64,000 nt of DNA from Escherichia coli (GTDB lineage: Bacteria > Pseudomonadota > Gammaproteobacteria > Enterobacterales > Enterobacteriaceae): assembly GCF_003019035.1 (NCBI RefSeq), contig NZ_CP027447.1; one strand, given 5' to 3'. The position numbers and the translations under genes were made by a program. The stretch's first letter is position 1, and each line of letters begins with the position of its first letter. Below the pieces are notes generated by a model. It was given only the letters and a program-made list of their open reading frames with translations. It was not told the DNA's origin and ran no database searches. Shown piece by piece: positions 2,591 through 26,848 of the stretch.

Positions 2591-2932
2591 ATGGCTATTG
2601 AAAGCGCTGCGGCGACTGTTCCATTAAGCCCCGGCGAACGCCTGAATGGACTTAATCACATAGCGGAATTAAGGGCGAAAGTTTTTGGCCTGAATATTGA
2701 GTCAGAGCTTGAGCGGTTTATTAAAGATATGCGTGATCCACGGGATATCAATAATGAACAAAATAAACGGGCACTGGCTGCTATATTCTTTATGGCAAAA
2801 ATTCCAGCTGAACGTCATAGCATCAGCATTAATGAGCTGACCACTGACGAAAAGCGGGAGCTGATTAAAGCAATGAATCATTTTCGTGCAGTGGTGAGCT
2901 TATTTCCCAGACGGCTAACCATGCCGAATTAA
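2591..2932 (+). CDS. hypothetical phage early protein (113 aa)
   Basis: ORF in the early operon between cII and dam. Confidence 0.5.
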   Translation: MAIESAAATVPLSPGERLNGLNHIAELRAKVFGLNIESELERFIKDMRDPRDINNEQNKRALAAIFFMAKIPAERHSISINELTTDEKRELIKAMNHFRAVVSLFPRRLTMPN

Positions 2933-2993
2933 CCAACTAATGAAATTAATGGCGTAAACCCGCCGGGCATCCCTTTATCTAAATTCAGGAGAA

Positions 2994-3233
2994 TTGATTA
3001 TGCGTAATATTGAAACCCTCTCGACCAAAACCGGACCGGATGACGCAGGGCTTAATATTTTACTGACAGAAGCTCGTCTGGAAGAACGCCGGGCAAGGGC
3101 TGAAGCAATGGCAGCTCGCCTTGATAGCCTGGCGTGTCATATCACATCCCGCCAGCTAACCCACGTCGAAGCGGCAGAACTGCTTCGTGTGACTGCTGAA
3201 GCAATCCAGAACGAAGCGCAGGAGATCCACTAA
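2994..3233 (+). CDS. hypothetical phage early protein (79 aa)
   Basis: ORF in the early operon; end overlaps the next gene start (ATGGCTGA). Confidence 0.5.
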   Translation: MIMRNIETLSTKTGPDDAGLNILLTEARLEERRARAEAMAARLDSLACHITSRQLTHVEAAELLRVTAEAIQNEAQEIH

Positions 3234-3460
3234 TGGCTGATGCAATGGATCTCGTACAGCAGCGCGTTGAAGAAGAACGCCAACGCCATATCCGTGCTGC
3301 CCGTGCCAAAACGCCGGGCGTGTCCCGCGTGCTTTGCATTGAGTGTGAAGCGCCAATTCCGCCAGCACGCCGCCGTGCCATTCCGGGTGTGCAGCTTTGC
3401 ATTACCTGTCAGGAAATCGCAGAGCTGAAAGGCAAACATTACAACGGAGGTGCTGTATGA
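3233..3460 (+). CDS. TraR/DksA-type C4 zinc-finger protein
   Basis: CxxC-N17-CxxC motif (CIECEAPIPPARRRAIPGVQLCITC); typical P2-family early gene. Confidence 0.7.
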   Translation: MADAMDLVQQRVEEERQRHIRAARAKTPGVSRVLCIECEAPIPPARRRAIPGVQLCITCQEIAELKGKHYNGGAV

Positions 3461-4314
3461 GCACCATCCTGAAATGGGCGGGAAATAAAACTGCCATAAT
3501 GTCCGAACTGAAAAAACATCTTCCTGCTGGCCCGCGACTGGTTGAACCTTTCGCGGGTTCCTGTGCTGTGATGATGGAGACGGATTATCCCAGCTATCTG
3601 GTTGCGGATATTAATCCTGATTTAATCAACCTCTATAAAAAGGTTGTCGCTGATTGTGAATCGTTTATATCTCGCGCCAGAGTTTTATTTGAGAACGCAA
3701 ACAGGGAGATGGATTATTACAACATAAGGCAGGAGTTTAATTACTCAACTGAAATTACTGATTTCATGAAAGCGGTATATTTCCTGTATCTCAATCGTCA
3801 CGGTTACCGTGGTTTATGTCGCTATAACAAGAGCGGGCATTTCAACATTCCCTACGGTAATTATAAAAATCCGTATTTCCCTGAAAAAGAAATTCGCGCA
3901 TTTGCAGAGAAAGCCCAGCGGGCAACGTTTATCTGCGCCAGCTTTGATGAAACGCTGGCGATGCTGCAGGTGGGGGATGTGGTGTATTGCGATCCGCCTT
4001 ATGACGGCACGTTTTCCGGTTATCACACTGACGGCTTCACTGAAGATGACCAGTATCATCTGGCATCCGTTCTTGAGCATCGGTCATCAGAAGGACATCC
4101 GGTCATTGTTTCTAACAGTGACACATCCCTGATCCGTTCGCTGTATCGCAATTTTACTCACCACTACATCAAGGCAAAACGCAGCATCGGCGTAGCAGCT
4201 GGTGAGAGTAAATCTGCAACAGAAATCATCGCTGTTTCTGGGGCACGCTGCTGGGTGGGATTTGATCCTTCGCGTGGCGTGGATAGTTCTGCTGTGTACG
4301 AGGTGCGTGTATGA
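3457..4314 (+). CDS. dam: DNA adenine methyltransferase (Dam family)
   Basis: DPPY catalytic motif (VYCDPPYDG) and AdoMet-binding-like EPFAGSCAV; GGAGG RBS; ATGA overlap with upstream gene. The ORF-track start 3397 was rejected as an N-terminal over-extension. Confidence 0.85.
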
Positions 4315-6725
4315 GTCATGACGATATGAGCAACTCTAGCGGCTTTAACGAGGCCGCTGCATCATTTTCATGGAACGGCCCGAAAAAGGCCATTAACCCT
4401 TATCTGGACCCGGCGGAAGTTGCGCCGGAGTCTGCACTTTCAAACCTGATCACTCTGTATGCTGCCGATAACGAGCAGGAACAACTGCGCCGCGAGGCAC
4501 TGAGTGAGCAGGTCTGGGAGCGTTATTTCTTTAATGAATCCCGTGATCCTGTCCAGCGCGAAATGGAGCAGGATAAGCTCATTAGCCGGGCAAAGCTGGC
4601 GCATGAGCAGCAGCGTTTTAATCCAGACATGGTCATTCTGGCTGACGTCAACGCCCAGCCTTCCCATATCAGCAAGCCGCTGATGCAACGTATTGAATAC
4701 TTCAGCAGCCTGGGCAGGCCAAAGGCTTATTCCCGCTATTTGCGTGAGACGATTAAGCCATGTCTGGAACGACTGGAGCATGTACGCGACAGTCAGCTAT
4801 CCACTTCTTTTCGCTTTATGGCAAGCCATGAAGGGCTGGACGGCCTGCTGATCCTGCCTGAAATGAGTCAGGATCAGGTGAAACGCCTGTCTACCCTTGT
4901 CGCTGCGCATATGAGCATGTGTCTTGATGCCGCTTGTGGTGATTTGTACGCCACCGATGATGTTAAGCCAGAAGAAATCCGCAAGACATGGGAAAAGGTG
5001 GCAGCGGAAACCCTACGTTTGGATGTCATCCCGCCTGCGTTTGAGCAACTCCGTCGGAAAAGAAACCGCCGTAAACCAGTGCCCTATGAACTCATTCCGG
5101 GCTCGCTGGCGCGTATGCTGTGCGCCGACTGGTGGTATCGGAAATTGTGGAAGATGCGTTGCGAATGGCGGGAAGAGCAGTTGCGTGCTGTCTGCCTGGT
5201 CAGCAAAAAAGCATCTCCCTATGTCAGCTATGAAGCTGTGATGCATAAACGTGAGCAGCGCCGTAAGTCGCTGGAGTTTTTCCGTTCTCATGAACTGGTG
5301 AACGAAGACGGAGACGCGCTGGATATGGAAGATGTGGTAAACGCCAGCTGCAGCAACCCGGCGCATCGCCGCAATGAGATGATGGCCTGTGTTAAAGGTC
5401 TGGAGCTTATCGCGGAAATGCGCGGTGACTGCGCCGTTTTCTACACCATTACCTGTCCGTCACGTTTCCATTCCACGCTCAATAACGGCAGACCCAACCC
5501 GACCTGGAAAAACGCGACGGTAAGACAAAGCAGCGATTATCTGGTCGGTATGTTTGCTGCATTTCGTAAGGCGATGCACAAAGCCGGGTTGCGCTGGTAT
5601 GGCGTGCGGGTGGCTGAGCCGCATCACGACGGCACAGTTCACTGGCACCTGTTGTGTTTCATGCGCAAAAAAGACCGCCGCGCCATTACTGCATTGTTGC
5701 GTAAGTTTGCTATCCGTGAAGACCGCGAGGAGCTGGGCAATAACACGGGGCCGCGCTTTAAGTCTGAGTTGATTAACCCGCGCAAAGGTACGCCAACAAG
5801 CTACATCGCGAAATACATCAGTAAGAACATTGACGGGCGTGGTCTGGCTGGCGAGATCAGCAAGGAAACGGGGAAATCCCTGCGTGATAATGCTGAATAC
5901 GTTAATGCCTGGGCGTCTCTGCATCGTGTTCAGCAATTCCGCTTCTTTGGCATTCCGGGGCGTCAGGCTTACCGCGAACTGCGATTGCTGGCTGGTCAGG
6001 CGGCAAGGCAACAGGGGGACAAAAAAGCAGGTGCGCCGGTACTGGATAACCCGCGCCTTGATGCAATCCTGGCTGCTGCTGATGCTGGTTGTTTTGCCAC
6101 CTACATCATGAAGCAGGGCGGCGTACTGGTTCCCCGCAAATATCACCTGATCAGAACCGCTTATGAAATCAACGAAGAGCCGACCGCCTATGGCGATCAC
6201 GGCATTCGTATTTATGGCATCTGGTCACCCATTGCAGAGGGCAAGATCTGCACTCATGCAGTGAAGTGGAAAATGGTTCGTAAGGCCGTTGACGTTCAGG
6301 AGGCGGCAGCCGACCAGGGCGCTTGCGCCCCTTGGACTCGTGGCAATAACTGTCCCCTTGCTGAAAATTTGAACCAACAAGGGAAAGACAAATCAGCTGA
6401 TGGGGACTCCAGAACGGATATTACCCGTATGAATGACAAGGAGTTGCACGATTACCTGCACAGTATGAGCAAAAAAGAGCGCCGGGAACTGGCTGCAAGG
6501 TTACGCCAGGTGAAACCGAAACGGCGTAAAGACTACAAACAGCGAATTACAGACCATCAGCGACAGCAGCTCGTCTATGAACTGAAGTCCAGGGGATTTG
6601 ATGGCAGCGAGAAAGAAGTCGATTTGCTCCTTCGCGGCGGCAGTATTCCGTCAGGAGCAGGCCTGCGTATCTTCTATCGGAACCAACGTCTGAAGGAAGA
6701 TGATAAGTGGCGGAACCTGTATTAA
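4311..6725 (+). CDS. replication initiation endonuclease (P2 gpA / 186 A homolog, rolling-circle type)
   Basis: 804-aa protein with HUH-like motif (VHWHLLCF) and downstream tyrosine region (YIAKYISKN); position after dam as in P2-like phages. Confidence 0.85.
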
Positions 6726-6817
6726 TTACGCGGGTTAACAATTCGTGCTCTTAATAATACCAGGCATATCAGGCCGATGAACGTAAAAAAACGTTTTACA
6801 TCAGTAAGATTATTATA

Positions 6818-6837
6818 TACTGTAAATATAAACAGTG
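6818..6837. promoter_or_regulatory. LexA (SOS) box
   Basis: TACTGTAAATATAAACAGTG matches the LexA consensus TACTGTATATATATACAGTA at 17/20 with intact CTGT-N8-ACAG; ~40 bp upstream of the ORF at 6878. Confidence 0.6.
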
Positions 6838-6877
6838 GTTATGTATACAGTATTGTTTTGGTGTCATAGGAGGAAAG

Positions 6878-7066
6878 ATGCAGGACTATTTTTTGGAGTC
6901 TTTGAAGCTCCAGCGCATTGATTTTTTTCTTAAGCTTGTAGCGGCTAGTGAGTGTAGTGATGAAGAGAAGGGGCTGGCTCTGCAGTGGGTTTCTGAATTG
7001 ACTGATGAACTCATGGCAAAAATCAGAAGCCACGAATACAACCGCTCAATGGATGTCATCAGCTGA
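6878..7066 (+). CDS. small SOS-controlled protein (62 aa), possible Tum-like antirepressor N-terminal module
   Basis: Strong RBS AGGAGG before ATG; immediately downstream of the LexA box; followed after 10 bp by the DinI-like ORF. Confidence 0.4.
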   Translation: MQDYFLESLKLQRIDFFLKLVAASECSDEEKGLALQWVSELTDELMAKIRSHEYNRSMDVIS

Positions 7067-7076
7067 GGTGACTTTT

Positions 7077-7310
7077 ATGCGCATTGAAATAATGATCGAT
7101 AAAGAGCAGAAGATTAGCCAGTCTACCCTGGACGCCCTTGAATCCGAGCTTTACCGCAATCTGCGCCCCCTGTATCCCAAAACGGTAATTCGCATTCGCA
7201 AAGGTAGCTCTAACGGTGTGGAACTAACCGGACTGCAACTGGATGAAGAAAGAAAACAAGTGATGAATATTATGCAGAAGGTGTGGGAGGACGACAGCTG
7301 GCTGCATTAA
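7077..7310 (+). CDS. dinI: DinI-family protein (77 aa)
   Basis: MRIEIMIDKEQ...VWEDDSWLH resembles DinI (MRIEVTIAK...WESADDW) in length and at both ends; LexA box upstream. Confidence 0.75.
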   Translation: MRIEIMIDKEQKISQSTLDALESELYRNLRPLYPKTVIRIRKGSSNGVELTGLQLDEERKQVMNIMQKVWEDDSWLH

Positions 7311-7502
7311 GAAACGTTGCCCCCAGGAGGATTCATTCTGATGGGGGCTAGTTTGGGCAATGAGTGAAATAAGGCGTAAGGTGGGCGGTTATTTTGATAA
7401 GTGATCGTCCGCTTTGTGTCAGAAGCAGAAGTGGGAGTGTCTGAGACTCTCTAAAAGTTGATGATTCACTTACAAAACCATTTTCCTGATGGATGCTTAC
7501 AC

Positions 7503-7838
7503 TTACGAATGATCATTCTGTTTAGTCTTCATGAGAAAATCCCGAATCTTTGCCAAGTTTGAATTTTCGGGGATTGAATCCATGTACGGATCACGCTCAA
7601 ACACTAATTGCTCAGATTCAACGAAAGCCTGCCACTCTACTGGGTCTAGCTCAAATCCCATTGCTGTCATATCACTTTCATCTTCCCCCTCGATCCAGTG
7701 GACTAAATAAAACAATTCATCATCAGGAGAATCATCCTCACCATCAACAATATCAACATCGGTTACAGTGATACGTAGGGTGGGATCGATTTTTGAGACA
7801 TAAATTCCTAACTGTGGTATAGGGGGAATATTGTTCAT
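7503..7838 (-). CDS. strongly acidic hypothetical protein (111 aa)
   Basis: 26 Asp/Glu versus 7 Lys/Arg; strong RBS (AAGGAG) on the minus strand; own transcription unit, convergent with dinI and divergent from the KAP NTPase. Confidence 0.55.
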   Translation of the reverse strand: MNNIPPIPQLGIYVSKIDPTLRITVTDVDIVDGEDDSPDDELFYLVHWIEGEDESDMTAMGFELDPVEWQAFVESEQLVFERDPYMDSIPENSNLAKIRDFLMKTKQNDHS

Positions 7839-8217
7839 GGAAACTCCTTTTATTGGTGTTTGCTATTTGAATAAAAATACGCCAAACAGAGTGTTAACTG
7901 TGAATATGGAAAGAATCGTTGTAAGTACCCCGCTTAGGTGTCCCATTCTATTTTAGAGGTTCTCGTGCATATGGATTATGTTATCTGAAAGTTAACTTCC
8001 GCTTCCCGTTCACAGCGAACATTCATCTTTGTAAACCCGTATGATCCGTTTTTCAAGTGGCCATTCAGATACGGATTTTCACTTCCTTGACAGTGCATGA
8101 CTATGCTGCATGAAATCGCATGATCGATTGAGGATCGTCTTTGCTCAGATCCGCCAGAACTGGCGGGCTTTTGCTCATGTCATGCATGTGCATGAAAACC
8201 ACTGCATAAAGCGGGCA

Positions 8218-8236
8218 GGCGTGGCGGGGATACGAG
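8218..8236. other. candidate cos cohesive-end core (P2/186-like)
   Basis: GGCGTGGCGGGGATACGAG then GCGCGCGCT; resembles the P2/186 cohesive-end sequence as I recall it (GGCG[A/T]GGCGGGGAAAGCA..). Recalled from memory, not verified. Confidence 0.3.
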
Positions 8237-8303
8237 CGCGCGCTTATTACTTTGATAGTACTCGGGTTATAATATGGATGACTATCTATCTCGGAGAATG
8301 TGC

Positions 8304-9956
8304 ATGTCATTGGACTATATTAAAGAACAGTTGTCAGACTTTATTTCATCTGCAGAACCTGAGGTAATGGCTATTCAGGGTGAATGGGGGATTGGGAAAA
8401 CCTATACTTGGAATACTTTCTTAAAGGAAAATAAAAATAAGATTGCATTTAATAGATATAGTTACGTCTCTCTTTTTGGTGTTAATTCATTGGACGCATT
8501 AAAATATTCCATCTTTGAAAATACAATTACAAAAGATTTTATTGGAAATAAACCTAATTTAAAAACAGCAACACAAAATACAAAGGGACTTCTTGAATCC
8601 TGCACTAGAAAGACCGCTCGTTTGTTAAAAGAAACACCTGTTGTGAAAAATTTCGCTACGACACTTGAGTCAATGTCATTTATGTCAATTACTAATGTTA
8701 TTGTAGTCATAGATGACTTAGAAAGACGTGGTAAAAATTTAGAAGTGAAAGATGTCTTAGGGTTGGTTTCTTTATTGAAAGAACAAAAAAATTGTAAGGT
8801 GGTTCTTTTACTTAATAATGGGACAAGTGGTATGGATGATTACTCCACTTATAAAGAAAAGGTTATTGATAGAGAGATTACCTATAACCCTACGCCAGAA
8901 GAATGTGCAGCTATAGCATATAAAAATAATTCTGATGTTCATAAATTATTAAGCAAATACTCCATTTCTCTGGGTATTAAAAATATTCGGATACTGAAAA
9001 AAATAGAGCGGTTTTTGCTAGCCTTGTTACCTGCTATTAACGTTAATTTTGATAAAATTGCAAATGAAGTCGCACGCTCCTTAACTTTGTATTGTTGGAG
9101 TCATTACGCATTTACTCCAGATGGAGATGTACCATCATTGGAATATATTAGAAATATGAGAAATATCTATATGCGTGATGAAAAAGAGGATGGAAAAGGA
9201 AAAAAATGGCTTAATACTTTGCTTATATATGGTTATAAAAAAACAAACGAACTTGATGAAGTCCTTATAGACATGGTTAAGCATGGATATATTGATATGA
9301 ACAATTTTCAAAGGCAAGTAAGTCTAAGAAATGATGAACTTATCCGTGATAGTAAGCGAGGTTCACTGTTTGAAGCATGGAAGCTTTTCTATAATTCATT
9401 TGAAGATAACCGAAATCAGGTTGTTGATAATCTATATCAAGCGGTGGTTGGTGGGATAGAGTATGTAACTCCAAGTGACTTGGATAGTGTTGTCGGACTG
9501 TATAGAGATTTAGATGAAAATATTAAAGCAAGTGAATTAATAAGTAAATTTATTAATTACGGCAATGATGCTCTTAAGGAATATGTCCAATCTATTTACA
9601 TGAATGTTCATCCTATAAAAGATGCTGAGTTAAAGTCAAAAATCCAAGATTATTCTATTACTTTAAATCTGGATGGTTCTATAAAGGATGTTCTAATAAA
9701 ATTATCAAGTCAGAATGGTTGGTCTGATAGGCACGAGGAAATATTGGATGCTGCCTCAGAGGATGACTACTATGATTTATTTAAAAAAGTCATTCTTGAA
9801 GGTGGTGATTCAATAATAGCCACTGCTCTTAAGTTTGGTGGGTATAGCAATGGTTCAGATAGAATGAAACGCATCGGAGAAAAAGCGAGAAATGCTTTGA
9901 TAAGAATTGGAAATGAGTCGAAGATTAATAAAATACGTGTTAGACGGTATTTGTAA
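8304..9956 (+). CDS. KAP-family P-loop NTPase (standalone, ~550 aa)
   Basis: Walker A GEWGIGKT (KAP signature GxWGxGK[ST]) and Walker B VIVVIDDLERR; no obvious transmembrane insert; AT-rich; perfect TATAAT at 8268-8273 upstream. ATG 8304 chosen for RBS spacing; the track ORF begins at 8274. Confidence 0.8.
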   Translation: MSLDYIKEQLSDFISSAEPEVMAIQGEWGIGKTYTWNTFLKENKNKIAFNRYSYVSLFGVNSLDALKYSIFENTITKDFIGNKPNLKTATQNTKGLLESCTRKTARLLKETPVVKNFATTLESMSFMSITNVIVVIDDLERRGKNLEVKDVLGLVSLLKEQKNCKVVLLLNNGTSGMDDYSTYKEKVIDREITYNPTPEECAAIAYKNNSDVHKLLSKYSISLGIKNIRILKKIERFLLALLPAINVNFDKIANEVARSLTLYCWSHYAFTPDGDVPSLEYIRNMRNIYMRDEKEDGKGKKWLNTLLIYGYKKTNELDEVLIDMVKHGYIDMNNFQRQVSLRNDELIRDSKRGSLFEAWKLFYNSFEDNRNQVVDNLYQAVVGGIEYVTPSDLDSVVGLYRDLDENIKASELISKFINYGNDALKEYVQSIYMNVHPIKDAELKSKIQDYSITLNLDGSIKDVLIKLSSQNGWSDRHEEILDAASEDDYYDLFKKVILEGGDSIIATALKFGGYSNGSDRMKRIGEKARNALIRIGNESKINKIRVRRYL

Positions 9957-9994
9957 TTTGGGAGGGGGATTTTCATCCCCCCCACACATTTTAT

Positions 9995-16260: not shown

Positions 16261-16476
16261 ATGACGCTTGAGCGAATCAGCGCCTTTATCACGTATTGCA
16301 TCGCCGTCGTGCTGGCCTGGCTGGGCGATTTGTCCATCAAGGATGCCTCAACGCTGGGCGGCCTGATGATTGGTGTGCTGATGATGGCTATCAACTGGTA
16401 CTACAAACACAAAGCCTACCAGCTTCTGCGCGACGGGCAGATCTCGCGGGAGGACTATGAATCCATCAATCGTTAA
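16261..16476 (+). CDS. holin (small two-TMD, pinholin-like)
   Basis: 71 aa with two hydrophobic segments and a charged C-terminus; immediately precedes the endolysin. Confidence 0.7.
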   Translation: MTLERISAFITYCIAVVLAWLGDLSIKDASTLGGLMIGVLMMAINWYYKHKAYQLLRDGQISREDYESINR

Positions 16477-16972
16477 ACGCTGCCTTGTCGGGGCCGTGCT
16501 GGCTATTGCTGCCACGCTGCCGGGTTTTCAGCAGCTTCACACCTCCGTGGAGGGGCTGAAACTGATTGCCGATTACGAAGGCTGTCGTCTGCAGCCGTAT
16601 CAGTGCAGCGCGGGTGTCTGGACCGACGGCATTGGTAATACATCTGGCGTCATTCCAGGCAAAACCATTACGGAACGACAGGCAGCGGAAGGGCTGATCT
16701 CCAACGTGCTGCGTGTGGAGCGGGCGCTGGAAAGATGTGTGAAGCAACAGCCGCCACAAAAGGTGTATGACTCGGTGGTGTCGTTTGCCTTCAACGTGGG
16801 GACAGGCAATGCCTGCAGCTCCACGCTGGTGAAATTGCTCAATCAGCGGCACTGGGCGGATGCGTGCCGACAGTTGCCGCGCTGGGTTTATGTGAAAGGT
16901 GTGTTTAATCAGGGGCTGGATAACCGCCGTGCGCGGGAGATGGCCTGGTGCCTTAAAGGAGCTGGACTATGA
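16457..16972 (+). CDS. SAR endolysin (T4-type lysozyme, GH24-like)
   Basis: N-terminal hydrophobic SAR-like segment (CLVGAVLAIAATLPGF) followed by a lysozyme E...D...T catalytic region (EGLKLIADYEGCRLQPYQCSAGVWTDGIGNT). Confidence 0.85.
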   Translation: MNPSIVKRCLVGAVLAIAATLPGFQQLHTSVEGLKLIADYEGCRLQPYQCSAGVWTDGIGNTSGVIPGKTITERQAAEGLISNVLRVERALERCVKQQPPQKVYDSVVSFAFNVGTGNACSSTLVKLLNQRHWADACRQLPRWVYVKGVFNQGLDNRRAREMAWCLKGAGL

Positions 16973-17397
16973 CGCGTGCGCTGGCAGTAGTGGTGGCGCT
17001 GGCACTCGTTACGCTGGGCTGGCAGTCGTGGCGGCTTAACAGCGCCAGCCACACCATCGAAACGCAGCGCGCGGCGCTGAAAAGTAAAGCGCAAGAACTG
17101 ACGAAGAAAAACAGCCAGCTGATCGGTCTGTCCATTCTGGCTGAAACCAACAACCGGGAGCAGGCGCGGCTCTACGCTGAAGCAGAACAGACCAGCGCAC
17201 TGCTGAGACAACGACAACGCCGGATCGAGGAACTGAAACGTGAGAACGAGGATTTACGCCGCTGGGCTGATACTCCTTTGCCTGCTGACATTATCCGGCT
17301 GCGGGAACGTCCGGCACTCACCGGAGGTGCAGCTTACCGTCAGTGGTTGTCCGCGAGTGACGCCGTGTCGGCTGGAGCAGGCAGCGCCGCGCACTAA
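16969..17397 (+). CDS. LysB (Rz-like inner-membrane spanin)
   Basis: 142 aa; N-terminal TM segment then coiled-coil-like region; follows the endolysin. Confidence 0.7.
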   Translation: MTRALAVVVALALVTLGWQSWRLNSASHTIETQRAALKSKAQELTKKNSQLIGLSILAETNNREQARLYAEAEQTSALLRQRQRRIEELKRENEDLRRWADTPLPADIIRLRERPALTGGAAYRQWLSASDAVSAGAGSAAH

Positions 17398-17530: not shown

Positions 17531-17924
17531 AGCGGTGCCTTATGTCCGTCATAACCCGGACAAACTGCACCTGTTTGTGGATAACGGTTCGCTGGTTGCC
17601 ACCGGGGCCAGCTCCATGTCATGGGAGTACCGTTACACCCTGAACGTGGTGATTGAGGATTTCAGCGGCGACCAGAATCTGTTGATGGCCCCGGTTTTGC
17701 TGTGGCTGCGGGATAACCAGCCCGATGCCATCAATAACCCGGCGTTACGGGAAAAGCTATTCACCTTTGAGGTGGATATTTTGCGCAACGATGTCTGTGA
17801 TATCAGCCTGAACCTGCAACTGACGGAGCGTGTGCTGGTCAGCACTGACGGCAGCGTGTCGAACGTTGAAGCGGTAGCGGAACCTGATGAACCTGAAGAA
17901 ATGTGGACGGTGAAACGTGGCTGA
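17472..17924 (+). CDS. tail completion protein (P2 gpR homolog)
   Basis: 150-aa ORF after the lysis genes; size and position match gpR. Confidence 0.75.
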   Translation: MRVRSETVNKPQSLRHALNKAVPYVRHNPDKLHLFVDNGSLVATGASSMSWEYRYTLNVVIEDFSGDQNLLMAPVLLWLRDNQPDAINNPALREKLFTFEVDILRNDVCDISLNLQLTERVLVSTDGSVSNVEAVAEPDEPEEMWTVKRG

Positions 17925-18375
17925 ACTGCAGAAAGTTGACGACTGGCTGAGTGCCTTGCTGGCGAATCTGGAGCCAGCCGCAAGAAGCCGCATGGTGCGT
18001 CAGCTGGCGCAGGAGCTGCGCCGGACACAGCAGCAGAATATCAGGATGCAACGCAACCCTGACGGCAGCAGTTATGAACCGCGCAAGGTCACAGCGCGCA
18101 GTAAAAAAGGCCGCATCAAACGTCAGATGTTTGCAAAGCTGCGCACCACAAAATACCTGAAAACCGCCGCCAGCGCCGACTCTGCCAACGTACAGTTTGA
18201 AGGCAAGGTGCAGCGCATTGCCCGCGTTCACCATTACGGCCTACGTGATCGCGTCAGCCGCAAAGGACCTGAGATCCGTTACGCAGAGAGAAAATTGCTT
18301 GGATTAAATGGATGTGAAAAATTAATTCGAAAAATATTCATTATGAATTTATTTTCTGGGGATTGGCTGGCATAA
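17917..18375 (+). CDS. tail completion / virion morphogenesis protein (P2 gpS homolog)
   Basis: 152-aa ORF; last gene before the AT-rich cargo; stop codon lies inside a terminator hairpin. Confidence 0.75.
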   Translation: MAELQKVDDWLSALLANLEPAARSRMVRQLAQELRRTQQQNIRMQRNPDGSSYEPRKVTARSKKGRIKRQMFAKLRTTKYLKTAASADSANVQFEGKVQRIARVHHYGLRDRVSRKGPEIRYAERKLLGLNGCEKLIRKIFIMNLFSGDWLA

Positions 18376-18397
18376 AAGCCAGCCTTTATTTTTTTAT
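18365..18397 (+). terminator. rho-independent terminator after S
   Basis: GGCTGGC-ATAAAA-GCCAGCC hairpin followed by TTTATTTTTTT. Confidence 0.55.
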
Positions 18398-19251
18398 GTG
18401 ATGGCCCCTATCTTTTGATTGTAATAACTATAATCAGCATGTTCTTCTGTATAAAAAATCTCAAATGCAGACAAGATGTTTGCGTAAAAACTATCCTTGG
18501 ATATAGAGGTTTTTTTATTGATGGATGCCAAAAAGTTTGTTATAAATCTTAATGATGCTGAGAAAAGAAAGTGCCCTTTCACCCAATGATTTATAGATGT
18601 ATTTTCTGGGAATTGAATGTTGTTTTTTTCTGCCAAACCATTAGTAGTAAACGATTCAGGTAGTCTATTGATATATTCATCTATTTTTTTCTTGCATATA
18701 TTGTATGAATTTCTTGATTGCATAAAACGATCACAGGAATCACCAATTACGGAGCATCCTAATTTATTTAAATGATTGTGAATATCTAGTATTATTAAGT
18801 TCTCAATGTTGCTATAGAAGTTAGAAAGCCAATTTCCTACATCTATTTCCTGCATTTTTTTTGTGCAAAAACGGCCTGTGTTTTTGAGTATGTGTGATAT
18901 GATTTTTTCATCAATGATTGTGTTTTCTATTGAATATCCCTTTGTGTAAATAATATTTGTATGCTTTACTATGTTGTCAGAAAAATGGTTTAGATCCGAA
19001 TCTCTGGCAACTATGGCGTTTATTTCTCCTGAGGTTATTTTTTCGATATATGGTTGTAAAGCTTCACATCCACCAACATCTTGAACTTCTACATTAAAAC
19101 GACCATTTTTTTTAAAAATTATTTCCCAAAAAGCAATGTCATCTTCACCTTCAACATAGACCATAATATCAGCATCATAAAATAAACTGATCACATTTTC
19201 CGCTTCATTAGACCAAGAAAAGTTTTCTGCATTAGAATCATTGATTAGCAT
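18394..19251 (-). CDS. Toprim/DUF4435-like protein (AriB-like), 285 aa
   Basis: Toprim-like acidic motifs VYVEGEDD (conserved Glu) and IVARDSD (DxD); overlaps the upstream ATPase gene by 14 bp; very AT-rich. Confidence 0.65.
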   Translation of the reverse strand: MLINDSNAENFSWSNEAENVISLFYDADIMVYVEGEDDIAFWEIIFKKNGRFNVEVQDVGGCEALQPYIEKITSGEINAIVARDSDLNHFSDNIVKHTNIIYTKGYSIENTIIDEKIISHILKNTGRFCTKKMQEIDVGNWLSNFYSNIENLIILDIHNHLNKLGCSVIGDSCDRFMQSRNSYNICKKKIDEYINRLPESFTTNGLAEKNNIQFPENTSINHWVKGHFLFSASLRFITNFLASINKKTSISKDSFYANILSAFEIFYTEEHADYSYYNQKIGAIT

Positions 19252-20494
19252 TGACTAATCTCTCCATATTGAAAATGGCGTTTTTATATTTAGATGCAAC
19301 TTCAGGAGAATGGGTTGCAGCAATAATTTGTGCATTAGGATTTAATTTTTTTATGGCAGGGATAATATTTCTTTGCCATTGAATATGTAAGGAAAGCTCA
19401 GGCTCATCAGTTAGGAAAATATATTGTTGCCCTCTTTGTAAGAGGGTCTCAATGAATAAAATTAGCAGTTGTTTTTCACCAGAAGATAAACTTTCTAAAA
19501 CTATTGGCCCATAGGTGTTATTTATGACTAACAATCCCGATTGAAAATGAAATTCTTTATCGGTGATAAAATTTCTTAGTATGCTTAAGAATTGTTCTAT
19601 TGGAGAAAATATTTTTGATGTTTTCTCTTTTGAAGTTAATGACATTTTGATTATTTTTTGTGTTTTTCTCAATGCTTCGATCGAACGAATATCAAAGCCT
19701 CTTTCACTTTTATTCTTTAATTCTGAAATGGTATTATTAATTGTTTCAACATGAAAGCTGATTTTTTTACGAATGTTTTGATCAATAGCATTTAACTGTG
19801 TGTATGCATTAAGGAGGTTTTGTTTTTCTTCCTCTTTGTTAAAGTTAATGTTGTAAGCAGGATTCTCCATATCTTCCTTGCTATAAAGTATTGATGCCAG
19901 AACCTCTTTTTGAAGTTCTAATGCGATATCTCTGGCTTTCTGGGATAGTTCAAGTTGATATTTTGTAAGTTCCTGTATTAATTCTGATAACTTATAGTCA
20001 ACAGGGTTGATAAAACGAGAGCCATATTTATCTTTAACTTCAAAATCATCACTATTTCTTAATCTGTAAACAGATAAAGAAGAAAGCGAGACTAGTTTTG
20101 CTAGTTCTGTTCTTAGTTCTTCTGTTTCATCATGCACTCTACGTCTATAACTAAGAGATATTCTTCTATCATCAGTGTTAAATAAACGAATTGTGTGTTT
20201 TTTAGATGAAAGCTGATATTCTATTTTGGAAAATGGAGATGTATCGCTTTCAAGTTTTTTGACTTTGATTGTTTTTGTCTTTTTTTTATCTTTAAGTTTT
20301 ATTTCGGCACTATTGAAATCAGCATTGTTAATACTGTCCAAATCAAGGGATAATATTGAGTGCAGAAGGTTCATAAAGGTTGTTTTACCCGTGCCATTTC
20401 GGCCTATAATAATGTTTACATCATCATTAAATGAGCAGGAACAGTTTAATCGCTGCCAAAAGCCATTAATTGTGACGCTTTGAATTTTATACAT
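19238..20494 (-). CDS. ABC/SMC-like ATPase (AAA_15/AAA_21-type, AriA-like), 418 aa
   Basis: Walker A GRNGTGKTT, ABC-signature-like LSSGEKQ, Walker B YIFLTDEPELSLH, H-loop IIAATHSPEV, with a charged coiled-coil-like insert between them. Confidence 0.75.
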   Translation of the reverse strand: MYKIQSVTINGFWQRLNCSCSFNDDVNIIIGRNGTGKTTFMNLLHSILSLDLDSINNADFNSAEIKLKDKKKTKTIKVKKLESDTSPFSKIEYQLSSKKHTIRLFNTDDRRISLSYRRRVHDETEELRTELAKLVSLSSLSVYRLRNSDDFEVKDKYGSRFINPVDYKLSELIQELTKYQLELSQKARDIALELQKEVLASILYSKEDMENPAYNINFNKEEEKQNLLNAYTQLNAIDQNIRKKISFHVETINNTISELKNKSERGFDIRSIEALRKTQKIIKMSLTSKEKTSKIFSPIEQFLSILRNFITDKEFHFQSGLLVINNTYGPIVLESLSSGEKQLLILFIETLLQRGQQYIFLTDEPELSLHIQWQRNIIPAIKKLNPNAQIIAATHSPEVASKYKNAIFNMERLVNANQ

Positions 20495-20541
20495 CTATGT
20501 ATCCTTTATTATTAGTTGAACTACTTAAATTTATAATCATT

Positions 20542-20559
20542 TGTGTCATTCTCAGTACA
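20542..20559. promoter_or_regulatory. candidate late-promoter activator site upstream of V (TGTGT-N9-TACA)
   Basis: TGTGTCATTCTCAGTACA; same pattern as the sites upstream of O and FI. Confidence 0.4.
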
Positions 20560-20606
20560 ATTATGCCGTTTGGAAGATATTATTTCAAATGTTTAATATA
20601 TACGGT

Positions 20607-21185
20607 ATGAACGCACAATTAACCGAAATCATGCGCCTTATCACCAATCTGATCCGCACTGGGGTAGTCACCGAAGTGGACCGGGAGAATTGGCTTTGCC
20701 GGGTGAAAACGGGCGACCTTGAAACTAACTGGATCAGTTGGCTGACGCTGCGTGCCGGGAATGCCCGCACATGGTGGCGACCATCGGAAGGTGAGCAGGT
20801 GGTGCTGCTGAGTCTTGGCGGCAATCTGGAGACTGCCTTTGCGCTGCCCGCTGTCTATTCGAATCAGTTCGCACCACCGTCGACGTCGGCGGACGCCTGC
20901 GTGACAGAACATCCTGACGGTGGCTGGTTTGAATACGAACCCGCCACCGGGCGCTGGTATGTCAAGGGCATCAAATCAATGGTCATTGAGGCCGCTGACA
21001 ACATCACCATGAAAACCAGTGAGTTTGTACTGGAGGCTGACCGCACGCGCATTAACAGCGAAGTGGTGATCAATGGTGGCGTTACCCAGGGCGGCGGAGC
21101 GATGAGTTCTAACGGGATCGTGGTTGATGTGCATCAGCATACTGGCGTCCTGAAAGGCGGCGATACAACCGGAGGCCCGGTATGA
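20607..21185 (+). CDS. baseplate spike/assembly protein (P2 gpV homolog)
   Basis: 192-aa ORF from ATG 20607 (MNAQLTEIMRL...); first gene of the V-W-J-I-H-G operon. Confidence 0.85.
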   Translation: MNAQLTEIMRLITNLIRTGVVTEVDRENWLCRVKTGDLETNWISWLTLRAGNARTWWRPSEGEQVVLLSLGGNLETAFALPAVYSNQFAPPSTSADACVTEHPDGGWFEYEPATGRWYVKGIKSMVIEAADNITMKTSEFVLEADRTRINSEVVINGGVTQGGGAMSSNGIVVDVHQHTGVLKGGDTTGGPV

Positions 21186-21541
21186 CGCTTTATAGCGGGA
21201 TGAACAATACCAGCGGCAAAGTCATTACTGATATTGACCATCTGCGCCAGTCGGTGCGGGACATTCTGCTGACACCGCAGGGTAGCCGTATTGCCCGTCG
21301 GGAATATGGTTCTCTGCTGTCGGCACTGATAGACCAGCCACAAAATCCGGCGTTACGCCTGCAGATTATGTCGGCAGTGTATGTGGCGCTGAGTCGCTGG
21401 GAGCCTCGGATGACGCTGGAATCCATCACAATCAACAGCAATTTTGACGGTTCTATGGTGGTGGAGCTGACCGGGCGGCGGAATAACGGTGTGCCTGTGT
21501 CCCTTTCCGTATCAACAGGAGCAGAGAATGGCAGTGATTGA
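21182..21541 (+). CDS. baseplate wedge protein (P2 gpW homolog)
   Basis: 119 aa; overlaps V stop; gpW size. Confidence 0.85.
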   Translation: MTLYSGMNNTSGKVITDIDHLRQSVRDILLTPQGSRIARREYGSLLSALIDQPQNPALRLQIMSAVYVALSRWEPRMTLESITINSNFDGSMVVELTGRRNNGVPVSLSVSTGAENGSD

Positions 21542-23034: not shown

Positions 23035-24407
23035 GCACAAAATTTTATACCCTGCTGACGGATATTGGCGCGGCGAAACTTGCCAGCGCCGCCGCGCTCG
23101 GTGTGCCGCTAAAAATTACCCATATGGCGGTGGGCGATGGCGGTGGAGCATTGCCGACGCCGGACGCAAAGCAGACTGCACTGGTAAATGAGAAACGCCG
23201 GGCTGCGCTGAATATGCTCTATATCGACCCGCAGAACAGTAGCCAGATTATTGCTGAACAGGTGATCCCTGAAAACGAGGGCGGTTGGTGGATACGTGAA
23301 GTGGGCCTGTTTGATGAGTCAGGGGCATTGATTGCCGTGGGAAACTGCCCGGAAAGCTATAAGCCGCAACTGGCTGAAGGCAGCGGGCGCACCCAGACTG
23401 TGCGCATGGTGCTGATTACCAGCAGCACGGACAATATCACCCTGAAAATCGACCCTGCCGTCGTGCTGGCAACCCGCAAGTATGTGGATGATAAGGTACT
23501 GGAGCTGAAGGTGTACGTGGATGATCAGATGGCAAAACATCTTGCCGCACCGGACCCACATTCACAGTACGCACCCAAAGAAAGCCCGATATTTACCGGA
23601 ACACCCAAAGCGCCAACGCCAGCGGCTGGGAATAATACCACGCAGCTTGCGACCACCGCGTTTGTTCAGGCGGCACTGACGACACTGATTAATGGTGCGC
23701 CAGCCACGCTGGACACGCTGAAAGAAATAGCCACAGCCATTAACAATGATCCGAAATTCAGTACCACTATCAACAATGCGCTGGCACTGAAAGCGCCGTT
23801 GTCGAGTCCGGCACTCACCGGAACGCCAACAGCACCTACTGCGGCACAGTCGGTCAACAATACACAGATTGCCACCACGGCTTTTGTGAAATCGGCGATT
23901 GCGGCAATGGTGGGTTCTGCCCCTGCGGCACTGGATACACTGAACGAACTGGCGGCGGCACTGGGGAATGACCCGAATTTTGCCACGACAATGCTTAATG
24001 CGCTGTCAGGTAAACAACCGCTGGACAATACGCTGACTAATTTGAGTGGAAAGGATGTTGCTGGTCTTCTCGCATTCCTGGGTTTGAAAACCGCCGCACA
24101 ACGCGACGTTGGGACTGGCACAAATCAAATTCCTGACATGAACGCTTTTAGCTCTGGCTCTGGCTGGCAGAAATTACCTGGAGGCAGGATTCTGCAGTGG
24201 CGGGGAATAGCCAATGGCCCTGGGGATATTACAAGCCCGCTACCCATTCCATTTCCAAATCGCGCAATAGGATGGGCAATTACGTCCGATTATGTACCAG
24301 GGTCAGGCGGAGTTGGCACAATAGCGGGGACGTGTACTGCAACGAATATCATTTCACGAAATACAAATGTGAGCACTGGTGGTAGCGCTATCGTAGTGGG
24401 GGAATAG
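23031..24407 (+). CDS. tail fibre protein (P2 gpH homolog)
   Basis: 458 aa; conserved gpH-type N-terminus (MSTKFYTLLTDIGAAKLA...); repetitive Ala/Thr-rich shaft; divergent C-terminus. Confidence 0.85.
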   Translation: MSTKFYTLLTDIGAAKLASAAALGVPLKITHMAVGDGGGALPTPDAKQTALVNEKRRAALNMLYIDPQNSSQIIAEQVIPENEGGWWIREVGLFDESGALIAVGNCPESYKPQLAEGSGRTQTVRMVLITSSTDNITLKIDPAVVLATRKYVDDKVLELKVYVDDQMAKHLAAPDPHSQYAPKESPIFTGTPKAPTPAAGNNTTQLATTAFVQAALTTLINGAPATLDTLKEIATAINNDPKFSTTINNALALKAPLSSPALTGTPTAPTAAQSVNNTQIATTAFVKSAIAAMVGSAPAALDTLNELAAALGNDPNFATTMLNALSGKQPLDNTLTNLSGKDVAGLLAFLGLKTAAQRDVGTGTNQIPDMNAFSSGSGWQKLPGGRILQWRGIANGPGDITSPLPIPFPNRAIGWAITSDYVPGSGGVGTIAGTCTATNIISRNTNVSTGGSAIVVGE

Positions 24408-24409
24408 GT

Positions 24410-24832
24410 ATGAGAACGTATCGCTATGACGCAATAACAAACGCATTTTATCCGTATGAGCTACAGAATGAGTATGAACAAGCAGGGATGTGGCCGGAGT
24501 CGGGCCATGATGTGAATGAAGATATTTTTCAGCAATTCATCAACCCTCCCGCAGGTAAGGTGCGTGTTGCCGGGAATGACGGAATGCCAGCATGGGGGGA
24601 TATTCCGCCACCGGCTCATGATGAACTCGTTGCGGTAGCAGATGTGAAAAAAGCAGCACTATTGGCAGAAGCGTCAGTCGTTATCGCCCCGCTGGCTGAT
24701 GCACAGGCGGGCGGTTATATCGATGACGCTGACGTGCCGCGACTGGCAGCATGGCAGAAATATCGCTATGCACTGACGAAAGTGGATACATCAACTGCGC
24801 CGGATATCACCTGGCCGCTGCAACCAGTGTAG
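24410..24832 (+). CDS. tail fibre assembly protein (P2 gpG / Tfa homolog)
   Basis: 140-aa ORF directly after H. Confidence 0.8.
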   Translation: MRTYRYDAITNAFYPYELQNEYEQAGMWPESGHDVNEDIFQQFINPPAGKVRVAGNDGMPAWGDIPPPAHDELVAVADVKKAALLAEASVVIAPLADAQAGGYIDDADVPRLAAWQKYRYALTKVDTSTAPDITWPLQPV

Positions 24833-25016
24833 AAATCTTTAGTGTAAATCGTCAAAGATGCTGGCGACTTGATGATTGATGACGGTATCAGTGATGATAA
24901 TTTACAGGTTGTACGGGAATAATACATAACAATTTGAATGGGGTATAATAGATAAATAATACATCATCATACCCCATTTTAGCCATTATCTATTGGCAAA
25001 AATATTCTTAATACCT

Positions 25017-26054
25017 TTATATTTGCCTACCTCCTAATAAAATGTGTGAGGTGTATTTGTTGGTTTTCAATAACCTTGCTACAATTATACAGGTGGTTAC
25101 AATAAGGAAAACAAATGAAGGGGTTATGATGAGGTTATATATGAGTGGATTTTCGCATAGGTTATTAATGTTCACGTATGCCTCTATTCTGTGAAAAATA
25201 AACGACGAGATTATATAGATGGGAAAGGTGTAAGTACCGACAAAGGATGTGGCTCGTATAAATAAATTATTTTTCGTTGATAAAAATGTATAAGCATATA
25301 TAAGCGATATGCTTCCGGCGAAGCCAATGAAGTAGCGAAATATAATAATGAATGATTGATGCCAGAAATCAACATTCTCATATGTCATTTTAGATATGTA
25401 AATATAATACTCTCTATTCCATAGGAGAAGCATACCAATCCATGTTAATACGGCTAACACACCAATTTTGTGCCTATTTCTAGAGGCAAAATCTAAAATG
25501 CGATGGGCGGATATACCAGCGATAAAATAAGGGGCCATAAATTTAATTTTGTCCATATTCCAATCATCTCCATATGCAAGGGATATACTAAATATCAGTA
25601 AATAAAGCACCACAGAATATTGTTTGCTTATTGAGTGACAAATAGTATAAACAATAGATACTGCAAAGAGTGCAGAAAGGAACCAGAAGGCGTAGATGGC
25701 TCCATATCTAATATTTATTAAATTTATATCTCTTCCCACAAAAATGGATTCAGCAATGAACCATGCAATGGATGGGATTATTAACTGCATGAATTTTCTT
25801 TTGATAATTGATGATGGTTTTCTCTTGAGAGAAAAATAGAAAAGATAGCCGCTAAGCAGCATAAAAAATGGCATGTGGAAGCTGTAAATGGTAATAAATA
25901 ATGGGTTGTCAAAAAAATTGAAACTATCTTTTTTTACAAACTGAATTGAATGGCCCCACACGACAAAAATTATAGCTAATCCTTTCATTGAGTCTATAAT
26001 GGAATTTCGAGTGCTGGGTGTCTCTGTTATAATAAGATGTGGTTCGTTTTTCAT
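25017..26054 (-). CDS. acyltransferase family 3 integral membrane protein (O-antigen/LPS O-acetyltransferase-like)
   Basis: 345 aa, highly hydrophobic multi-TM; N-terminal region GLAIIFVVWGHSIQF typical of acyltransferase-3; very AT-rich; opposite strand to tail genes. Confidence 0.75.
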   Translation of the reverse strand: MKNEPHLIITETPSTRNSIIDSMKGLAIIFVVWGHSIQFVKKDSFNFFDNPLFITIYSFHMPFFMLLSGYLFYFSLKRKPSSIIKRKFMQLIIPSIAWFIAESIFVGRDINLINIRYGAIYAFWFLSALFAVSIVYTICHSISKQYSVVLYLLIFSISLAYGDDWNMDKIKFMAPYFIAGISAHRILDFASRNRHKIGVLAVLTWIGMLLLWNREYYIYISKMTYENVDFWHQSFIIIFRYFIGFAGSISLIYAYTFLSTKNNLFIRATSFVGTYTFPIYIISSFIFHRIEAYVNINNLCENPLIYNLIITPSFVFLIVTTCIIVARLLKTNKYTSHILLGGRQI

Positions 26055-26386
26055 TTAATTTGTCAACTTTAGATTGAGTGGTATAAGAATTGCAACTAAA
26101 CACTCGTGAGCTAATATTTACATATATTATCAATGATCATTAATTCAATCAATTAGGAATTGCTTTATTGTATGTAACAGATTCTCATTTTGGGGTAGAT
26201 GCTACTATTGCTGTCATCACACCATAAATTAAGTCCATTCATATTAGATATCTTGGGTCGTTCCGGGAAGTACACGGCCACTATCAGTAAATGTGTGGTA
26301 AGAGCTTCACCAGTCGAACGTTTTTGAAAATACAGAGATAATGGCTAACAGGCATCATCCCCGGTTTTTATTTAGGGGGATGCTCA

Positions 26387-26706
26387 TGCTTATTGGCTAT
26401 GTACGTGTATCAACAAATGACCAGAACACTGATTTGTAATGCAATGCGCTGAACTGCGCGGGATGTGCGCGGATTTTTGAGGATAAAATCAGTGGCACTA
26501 AGTCCGACAGGCCGGGACTGGCTGCAGCTCGCGCCAAAGGCAGAGTAGGTGGACGCCGTCCTAAGTTGACCACCGAACAGTGGGCACAGATTGGACGTTT
26601 ACTCGAGGCCGGAGAATCAAGACAGCGTATTGCACTGATTTTTGATGTAGGCGTTTCTACCATTTATCGAAAATTTCCGGCAAATAAGAGCAATGAATCT
26701 CCCTGA
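26387..26706 (+). pseudogene. DNA invertase (Hin/Gin/Pin/Cin serine recombinase) pseudogene
   Basis: N-terminus MLIGYVRVSTNDQNTDL then in-frame TAA (26438-26440) where Hin has Gln; RPGL joins directly to AAARAKGR (catalytic core of ~100 codons missing); C-terminal HTH GGRRPKLTTEQWAQIGRLL...STIYRKF is in a different frame (1-nt shift near 26640). Confidence 0.8.
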
Positions 26707-26754
26707 ATCAGCTTTATTTTGATTATCCCTGAAAGCAGACAAATACCGTCATTT

Positions 26755-26772
26755 TGTGTGAATAACGGTACA
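26755..26772. promoter_or_regulatory. candidate late-promoter activator site upstream of FI (TGTGT-N9-TACA)
   Basis: TGTGTGAATAACGGTACA, centred ~85 bp upstream of the FI start codon. Confidence 0.45.
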
Positions 26773-26848
26773 ACTGCGCTTAGCTGTTTGTCAGGCACAA
26801 TAACTTCAACATAGGGCGAAGCCTAATCCAATCAGGAGGTTCGCCACT

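Follow-up and report, generated by a model that had tools for sequence, protein, structure and literature searches.

Introduction

PARIS is an already known kind of phage defence in which an ABC-type ATPase, AriA, is encoded next to a Toprim nuclease of the DUF4435 family, AriB. The closest described examples are PARIS-2 of Escherichia coli B185 (PDB 8ux9 and 8v45-8v49; Rousset 2022, Burman 2024, Deep 2024, Belukhina 2025), PARIS-1 of O42 and the PARIS of the cos-adjacent P2 hotspot (Rousset 2022, Tables S2 and S5). In the B185 system AriA holds AriB in a complex of AriA6:AriB3 stoichiometry that sequesters the nuclease; released AriB cuts tRNA and the infection aborts (PMC11464382, PMC9122126, PMC12409363). 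Here we describe a pair of genes between the tail completion gene S and the baseplate assembly gene V of a P2/186-like prophage, in a 64,000-nucleotide stretch of an E. coli-type chromosome (contig NZ_CP027447.1; the window is this whole stretch). The prophage sits beside ybjL, and the first 24 kb of the window are ~95% identical to P2-family prophages in many E. coli genomes. We conclude that the S-V insert is very probably a complete, intact PARIS operon, ariA-ariB, which the prophage carries as cargo in its orf30 slot.

While the kind of defence is known, the allele itself is divergent. Identity to B185 PARIS-2 is ~22% for AriA and ~13% for AriB, AriB has 285 rather than 308 residues, and the pair lies in the S-V slot of a P2-like prophage whereas the B185 genes lie in a P4 satellite hotspot. 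With O42 PARIS-1 and the cos-adjacent P2-hotspot PARIS it shares the domain pair, the detection rule and carriage as prophage or satellite cargo, but its AriB belongs to a different subfamily and its insertion slot is a different one. In hhalign comparisons the first ~100 residues of AriB, the N-terminal Toprim half, align with AriB of the P2 hotspot (probability 90%, E 1.5e-6) and of O42 (probability 27%, E 7e-4), and the C-terminal halves are unrelated by sequence. P2 itself carries a nonessential moron, Orf30, at the same S-V position, likewise antisense, with the O-operon terminator on one side and the Ogr site of the V promoter (PV) on the other, but Orf30 is a single, apparently hydrophobic 261-residue protein without similarity to AriA or AriB. 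The OLD nucleases (P2 Old, Class 1 and Class 2 OLD) and GajA of Gabija also combine an ABC-type ATPase with Toprim and are distant structural relatives; in these the two are fused in one polypeptide, whereas the window has two open reading frames (ORFs), and the ORF list of the cassette holds no GajB-type helicase gene.

Results

Gene structure and family assignment

Both genes lie on the minus strand. ariA (19238-20494) encodes an ABC/SMC-type ATPase of 418 amino acids, the predicted sensor and scaffold, and ariB (18394-19251) encodes a DUF4435/Toprim nuclease of 285 amino acids, the predicted effector. The stop of ariA and the start of ariB overlap by 14 bp (19238-19251, minus strand; aATGCTAATCAATGA), which suggests a single operon with translational coupling. 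The same overlapping layout recurs in the alleles of E22, CUVET, Serratia and Cronobacter. The G+C content (GC) of the insert is ~30%, compared with ~57% for the P2/186-like prophage; by position it is 0.29-0.32 across 18400-20600 and 0.55-0.60 on both flanks. A previous reading of this DNA from its letters alone (the sequence-only reading) had described an AT-rich antisense insert, a 14-bp overlap and a second protein of 285 amino acids, in agreement with the composition and the ORF coordinates given here.

That reading had also proposed PARIS on the strength of short motifs, to be checked by profile searches for AAA_15/AAA_21 and DUF4435/Toprim, and these searches bear it out. The MacSyFinder rule for PARIS (Rousset 2022; PMC9122126) takes AAA_15 at no fewer than 32 bits or AAA_21 at no fewer than 27 bits, with an adjacent DUF4435 match of at least 27 bits. 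In Pfam, the 418-residue protein scores 78.7 bits for AAA_15, 66.0 bits for AAA_21 and 36.3 bits for SMC_N, and the 285-residue protein matches DUF4435 nearly full length (93.9 bits, 1.7e-26, residues 28-248), so that both ATPase families and the adjacent DUF4435 exceed the thresholds. The best PADLOC models are AriA PDLC04164 (2.2e-38) and AriB PDLC02983 (2e-21), and the PtuA, MADS and GajA models match the ATPase less strongly than AriA does. Another nuclease fold in the second protein, for example HNH, had been named as an outcome that would speak against PARIS; the fold found is Toprim/DUF4435, which favours it. Since the E-values from Pfam, PADLOC and PHROG range from 1e-21 to 1e-185 and the ratios of nonsynonymous to synonymous substitution rates (dN/dS) from 0.02 to 0.25, the ORF pair is not a product of chance.

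An S-ariB-ariA-V locus 99.5% identical to that of the window is present in EC596, where RefSeq gives only the generic names 'DUF4435 domain-containing protein' and 'AAA family ATPase'. The names are generic because NCBIfam holds no AriB model and, in an NCBIfam scan, the ATPase receives only sub-threshold PtuA and ABC matches.

AriA and the AriB active site

All four ATPase motifs picked out in the sequence-only reading were located in AriA: Walker A GRNGTGKTT at residues 31-39 (K37), the signature LSSGEKQ at 336-342, Walker B at 360-366 (D363 and E364) within FLTDEPELSLH (360-370), and the H-loop ATHSP at 393-397. None of K37, the signature, D363/E364 and the H-loop varies among 32 homologues. 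In a sequence search of the PDB, AriA chains are the top matches (1e-20) ahead of PtuA (1e-8), and a 32-sequence AriA profile gives the same order (1.9e-26 for AriA chains, 1.3e-14 for PtuA). The fold is that of AriA, an ABC ATPase head with scaffold-building helical insertions.

AriB contains both Toprim acidic motifs that had been noticed in its sequence, VEGEDD (residues 33-38) and ARDSD (residues 82-86). Across 32 family members E34, D37, D38, D84, D86, E109, N110 and G226-H227-F228 are invariant, and position 225 is K or R (K225 here). Its fold has two parts, the Toprim nuclease and the helical C-terminal domain that is specific to AriB. Residues were related to the B185 protein by hhalign, whose alignments with B185 and O42 AriB are weak and were used solely for motif mapping. 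The B185 and O42 AriB sequences were taken from Table S2A of Rousset et al., and the published residue numbers check out on B185. The Toprim acidic residues of B185 AriB, E26, D30, D88, E90 and E122 (PMC11464382), map to E34, D38, D84, D86 and E109, respectively. R236-G-H of B185 maps to K225-G226-H227; in an AlphaFold 3 model, R236 of B185 AriB touches U17 in the D-loop of the tRNA.

Junctions and transcription signals

The cassette is flanked by S (17917-18375, plus strand; 152 amino acids, phrog_26 1e-45) and by V (20607-21185, plus strand; PHROG baseplate families 9e-29), which heads the V late operon and whose start at 20607 was taken from the RefSeq annotation of the EC596 locus. Homology to L008, a related prophage with an empty slot, ends at 18288 inside S and resumes at 20606, one base ahead of the V ATG. 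The position of the insert in the S-V gap had thus been read correctly, but the foreign DNA extends a little beyond the gap and starts inside S. The final 29 codons of S (18289-18375) are AT-rich and came with the cassette, in place of the sequence that S has in empty-slot relatives; S is 87% identical to that of L008, with a divergent tail. The C-terminus of S is accordingly chimeric, ending in …LLGLNGCEKLIRKIFIMNLFSGDWLA in the window instead of the usual …LLGVNDDVEAMTRDMILQWLAG. This junction pattern fits exchange through recombination in the flanking genes and not site-specific insertion.

An intrinsic terminator of the late O operon (18365-18394, plus strand) was found by terminator scan and in the sequence, with a GGCTGGC/GCCAGCC hairpin at 18365-18384 followed by a T-run. 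The terminator runs over the stop codon of S and up to that of ariB; in the P2 annotation, too, an O-operon terminator stands at the equivalent relative place. On the other side, a TTGT-N12-ACAA dyad at 20541-20560, ~47 nt upstream of the V ATG, is the Ogr/Delta-type activator site of the late promoter PV; the P2 annotation places an activator binding site at the equivalent relative place before V. We aligned seven S-V regions (three PARIS alleles, Cronobacter, P2, one with unrelated cargo and one empty slot). The TTGT and AA columns of the dyad are invariant in 7/7, as is the C of ACAA, and its distance to V is fixed whatever the cargo, with no conservation of the intervening sequence. From the terminator and the conserved dyad it therefore follows that the cargo lies at an operon boundary and leaves the late transcription signals undisturbed.

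For the cassette itself, a Shine-Dalgarno-like AAGGA (20502-20506, minus strand) stands 7 nt upstream of the ariA ATG, and its complement, TCCTT, is kept in most aligned cassettes. A promoter scan returned a candidate sigma-70 promoter for ariAB at 20560-20588 on the minus strand (TTGAAA-17-CATAAT, 10/12 consensus matches), an assignment that we regard as tentative. The -10 element of this candidate abuts the Ogr/Delta dyad; as a speculation, binding of the late activator at the dyad could interfere with ariAB transcription.

Selection, distribution and mobility

Five alleles were compared (window, E22, CUVET, Cronobacter and Serratia). dN/dS is 0.017-0.06 for ariA and 0.06-0.25 for ariB, with dN far below dS; as dS is saturated, these ratios serve as upper-bound indicators of purifying selection only. 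In most allele pairs AriB has about twice as many amino-acid changes as AriA. GC is 31-35% in all five alleles, whatever the host.

Relatives at the DNA level occur in 30 of 5,426 complete E. coli genomes: two have the window allele, nine a 77%-identical allele and ~19 alleles of ~66% identity. The sampled copies of all three (EC596 and S56, E22, and CUVET24-IPD24) are in the S-V slot. At the protein level the subfamily is widespread in Gammaproteobacteria and beyond. A Cronobacter P2-like prophage carries this AriA/AriB pair, overlapping in the same way, between S and V (locus 2749-4840), and in a Serratia marcescens P2-like prophage the pair, again with this overlap, lies between portal and gpA (locus 2758-4858), which is the cos-adjacent hotspot of Rousset et al. 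and Vassallo et al. Because the cassette occupies the S-V slot in Cronobacter and the cos-adjacent site in Serratia, it moves between P2-like hotspots. A megablast search of the phage collection returned nothing beyond the first ~45 bases of V; no deposited phage genome therefore carries the cassette at ≥85% identity.

Discussion

Evidence against PARIS and alternative readings

Several observations count against an intact, functional PARIS operon. AriB is 13-16% identical to solved AriB (~13% to B185 AriB), and no AriB chain was matched when the PDB was searched by phmmer with the single sequence; hmmsearch with the 32-sequence AriB profile likewise matched no chain at E≤1 or E≤10. AriB is therefore tied to solved AriB by fold comparison only, and hhalign of the AriB family profile against B185 AriB is weak (probability 3%, E 0.014). 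Two sets of contact residues differ as well. R28 and R31 of B185 AriB, which form salt bridges to AriA (PMC11464382), correspond to E36 and I39, and K60 and K64, proposed to hold the anticodon loop of tRNA-Lys (PMC12409363), correspond to A64 and an 8-residue gap; all four are unconserved in a low-confidence alignment, and they are specific to the B185 allele and not family-defining. On the side of the ATPase, AriA is 46 residues shorter than its B185 counterpart (418 compared with 464), and its predicted model is only moderately confident, with a mean predicted local distance difference test score (pLDDT) of 79.8. As for expression, the promoter scan of the region gave 12 matches where 11.2 were expected from shuffles. 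PARIS of O42 conferred no defence when driven by its native promoter (PMC9122126), so native expression of the window operon is not assured.

One alternative is that the genes are a decayed or silent remnant, derived from PARIS but no longer expressed or active in the window prophage. Besides the inactivity of O42 PARIS, the copy in E. coli S56 (NZ_CP010242.1) has a 54-bp deletion and is represented in RefSeq by two AAA ATPase and two DUF4435 features, which suggests that the S56 copy of this allele is disrupted, and the EC596 prophage, whose cassette is identical, shows decay of its own: its integrase is a pseudogene and its gpA is truncated. In the window, however, both ORFs are full length and keep all catalytic and family-invariant residues, dN/dS is well under 1 across alleles, and the cassette has a Shine-Dalgarno sequence and a promoter candidate with 10/12 matches. 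We give decay in the window prophage only a slim chance.

The other alternatives keep the genes intact and assign them to a different family. OLD, GajA and PARIS all pair an ABC ATPase with Toprim (PMC9122126), thus raising the possibility that the pair is a split OLD-family or Gabija-like module, an ATP-dependent DNA nuclease acting on phage or host DNA instead of a trigger-released tRNase. In some source databases homologues go by the name 'predicted ATP-dependent endonuclease of OLD family', Pfam OLD-like_TOPRIM matches weakly (0.038), PADLOC GajA matches the ATPase at 2.8e-13, and OLD C-terminal regions are the next-best structural matches of AriB. These structural and profile scores are nevertheless much below those of AriA and AriB, and the fusion typical of OLD and Gabija is not seen, since the ORFs are separate and the cassette has no helicase gene. 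The split-OLD and Gabija readings were rejected on partner-domain and structural scores, and we find them quite unlikely. A Septu-like or retron-type PtuA, with the ATPase serving a different nuclease partner, would account for the many PADLOC PtuA models that match the ATPase (1e-23 to 1e-13), for the PtuA chains among its secondary PDB matches and for NCBIfam PtuA at 1.8e-18, yet the last scores 66.8 bits against a cutoff of 500 bits and AriA scores above PtuA in each comparison. Neither Pfam nor PADLOC gives an HNH (PtuB) match for the partner, which is DUF4435/Toprim, and the cassette has no reverse transcriptase or msr/msd RNA; an Rfam scan of 17800-21200 gave one chance-level match and no RNA component. 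Contradicted by the partner fold and lacking HNH, the Septu reading was rejected, and its probability is close to negligible.

Proposed mechanism and divergence of the allele

Under the PARIS assignment, a mechanism can be proposed by analogy with B185. Flanked by the O-operon terminator and by the Ogr-dependent PV promoter, ariAB would be transcribed antisense to the late genes. In the lysogen, multimers of the AriA ABC ATPase would form a scaffold that keeps AriB monomers inactive. A superinfecting phage would make an Ocr-like, DNA-mimicking anti-restriction protein, which AriA would bind in an ATP-dependent manner, and AriB would be released. AriB would then dimerise, and its two-metal Toprim site would nick the anticodon stem-loop of particular host tRNAs. 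Translation would stop and the infection would abort, to the benefit of the resident prophage and of the lysogens as a population. Complex formation, the trigger, the tRNAs that are cut and the abortive outcome are all inferred here from B185 PARIS, and the trigger range and the tRNA set of the window allele may differ from those of B185.

Such a difference is suggested by AriB itself. Because the arginines that contact AriA and the lysines that hold the tRNA are unconserved, trigger and target may both differ, and the interface and substrate contacts of this AriB may not be those of B185; since the hhalign alignment is weak, we take this as a lead and not as proof. A wider proposal is that the ~280-residue AriB subfamily has other phage triggers and/or other tRNA or RNA targets, and that the S-V slot is a further defence hotspot with possibly new systems among its other cargo. 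We hold this combined proposal tentatively, as somewhat less than an even chance. Either way, the window offers an intact natural allele whose effector is ~13% identical to the only AriB studied structurally and biochemically and lacks the residues implicated in its recognition of tRNA-Lys, and it would be useful for comparing how the trigger and tRNA specificity of PARIS evolve.

Cargo of the S-V slot

A query with the 7.8-kb region around the slot gave ~1,080 E. coli records, and from these we took an even sample of 52 full-length matches. The slot is empty, with a 68-bp S-V spacer, in 26/52. Hypothetical proteins occupy it in 8/52, DUF6216 in 5/52, and DUF2971 and other AAA ATPases in 3/52 each. 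A GmrSD-domain nuclease and PARIS account for two records apiece (2/52), and a TIR-domain protein, PcfJ and a Sll1717-type P-loop ATPase for one apiece (1/52). Partial matches outside the 52-record sample added three DUF6216, one PcfJ and one FRG-domain protein, and AZ147 and E2348/69 have further antisense hypothetical genes in the slot. About half of related E. coli prophages thus carry varied defence-like cargo between S and V.

In the P2-hotspot literature that we covered, which is incomplete, the hotspots described are the cos-adjacent old/tin locus, the Z/fun locus and a tail-cI locus. The only mention there of the S-V position is as the variable orf30 site, and we claim no priority. The S-V slot may add one more, as yet unmined, to the defence hotspots of P2-like phages. 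If so, its cargo (DUF6216, DUF2971, PcfJ, FRG and Sll1717-type ATPases, and the hypothetical proteins) could include new defence systems, for which the slot could be mined.

Other cargo in the window

The cos-adjacent P2 hotspot of the window prophage (gpA-portal, 6726-9994) is occupied too. An ORF at 8274-9956 (plus strand) encodes a 560-residue KAP-family P-loop NTPase (Pfam 2.3e-08; PADLOC candidate PDC-S49 3.7e-25), and small AT-rich ORFs lie at 7005-7310 and 7503-7838. A third AT-rich cargo patch, of GC ~33%, fills the Z/fun slot downstream of the tail-fibre genes (24400-26800). It contains an antisense ORF (25017-26054, minus strand) for a 345-residue acyltransferase similar to fucose/O-antigen acetyltransferases of the NolL type (NCBIfam 7e-19, below cutoff), which may be a lysogenic-conversion gene.

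Outside the prophage and downstream of ybjL, an AT-rich islet of 34% GC spans 50000-53000. Its ORF at 50965-52746 (plus strand) encodes 593 amino acids with pentapeptide repeats (Pfam 3.4e-4) and has a weak local match, far below cutoff, to the Hailong effector HalA (1.3e-5). ARAGORN found no tRNA genes in the whole window, and the prophage is therefore without tRNA genes.

Compared with its relatives L006 and L008 (1445-1822), the window prophage (16457-17397) is without the 'DNZ54_00345 family' gene that most relatives have between lysozyme and lysB; strain JX21CE8 is likewise without it. The early region of the prophage encodes a Dam-like orphan DNA adenine methyltransferase (3397-4314, plus strand; PADLOC oMTase 3.6e-111), an enzyme common in 186-like phages.

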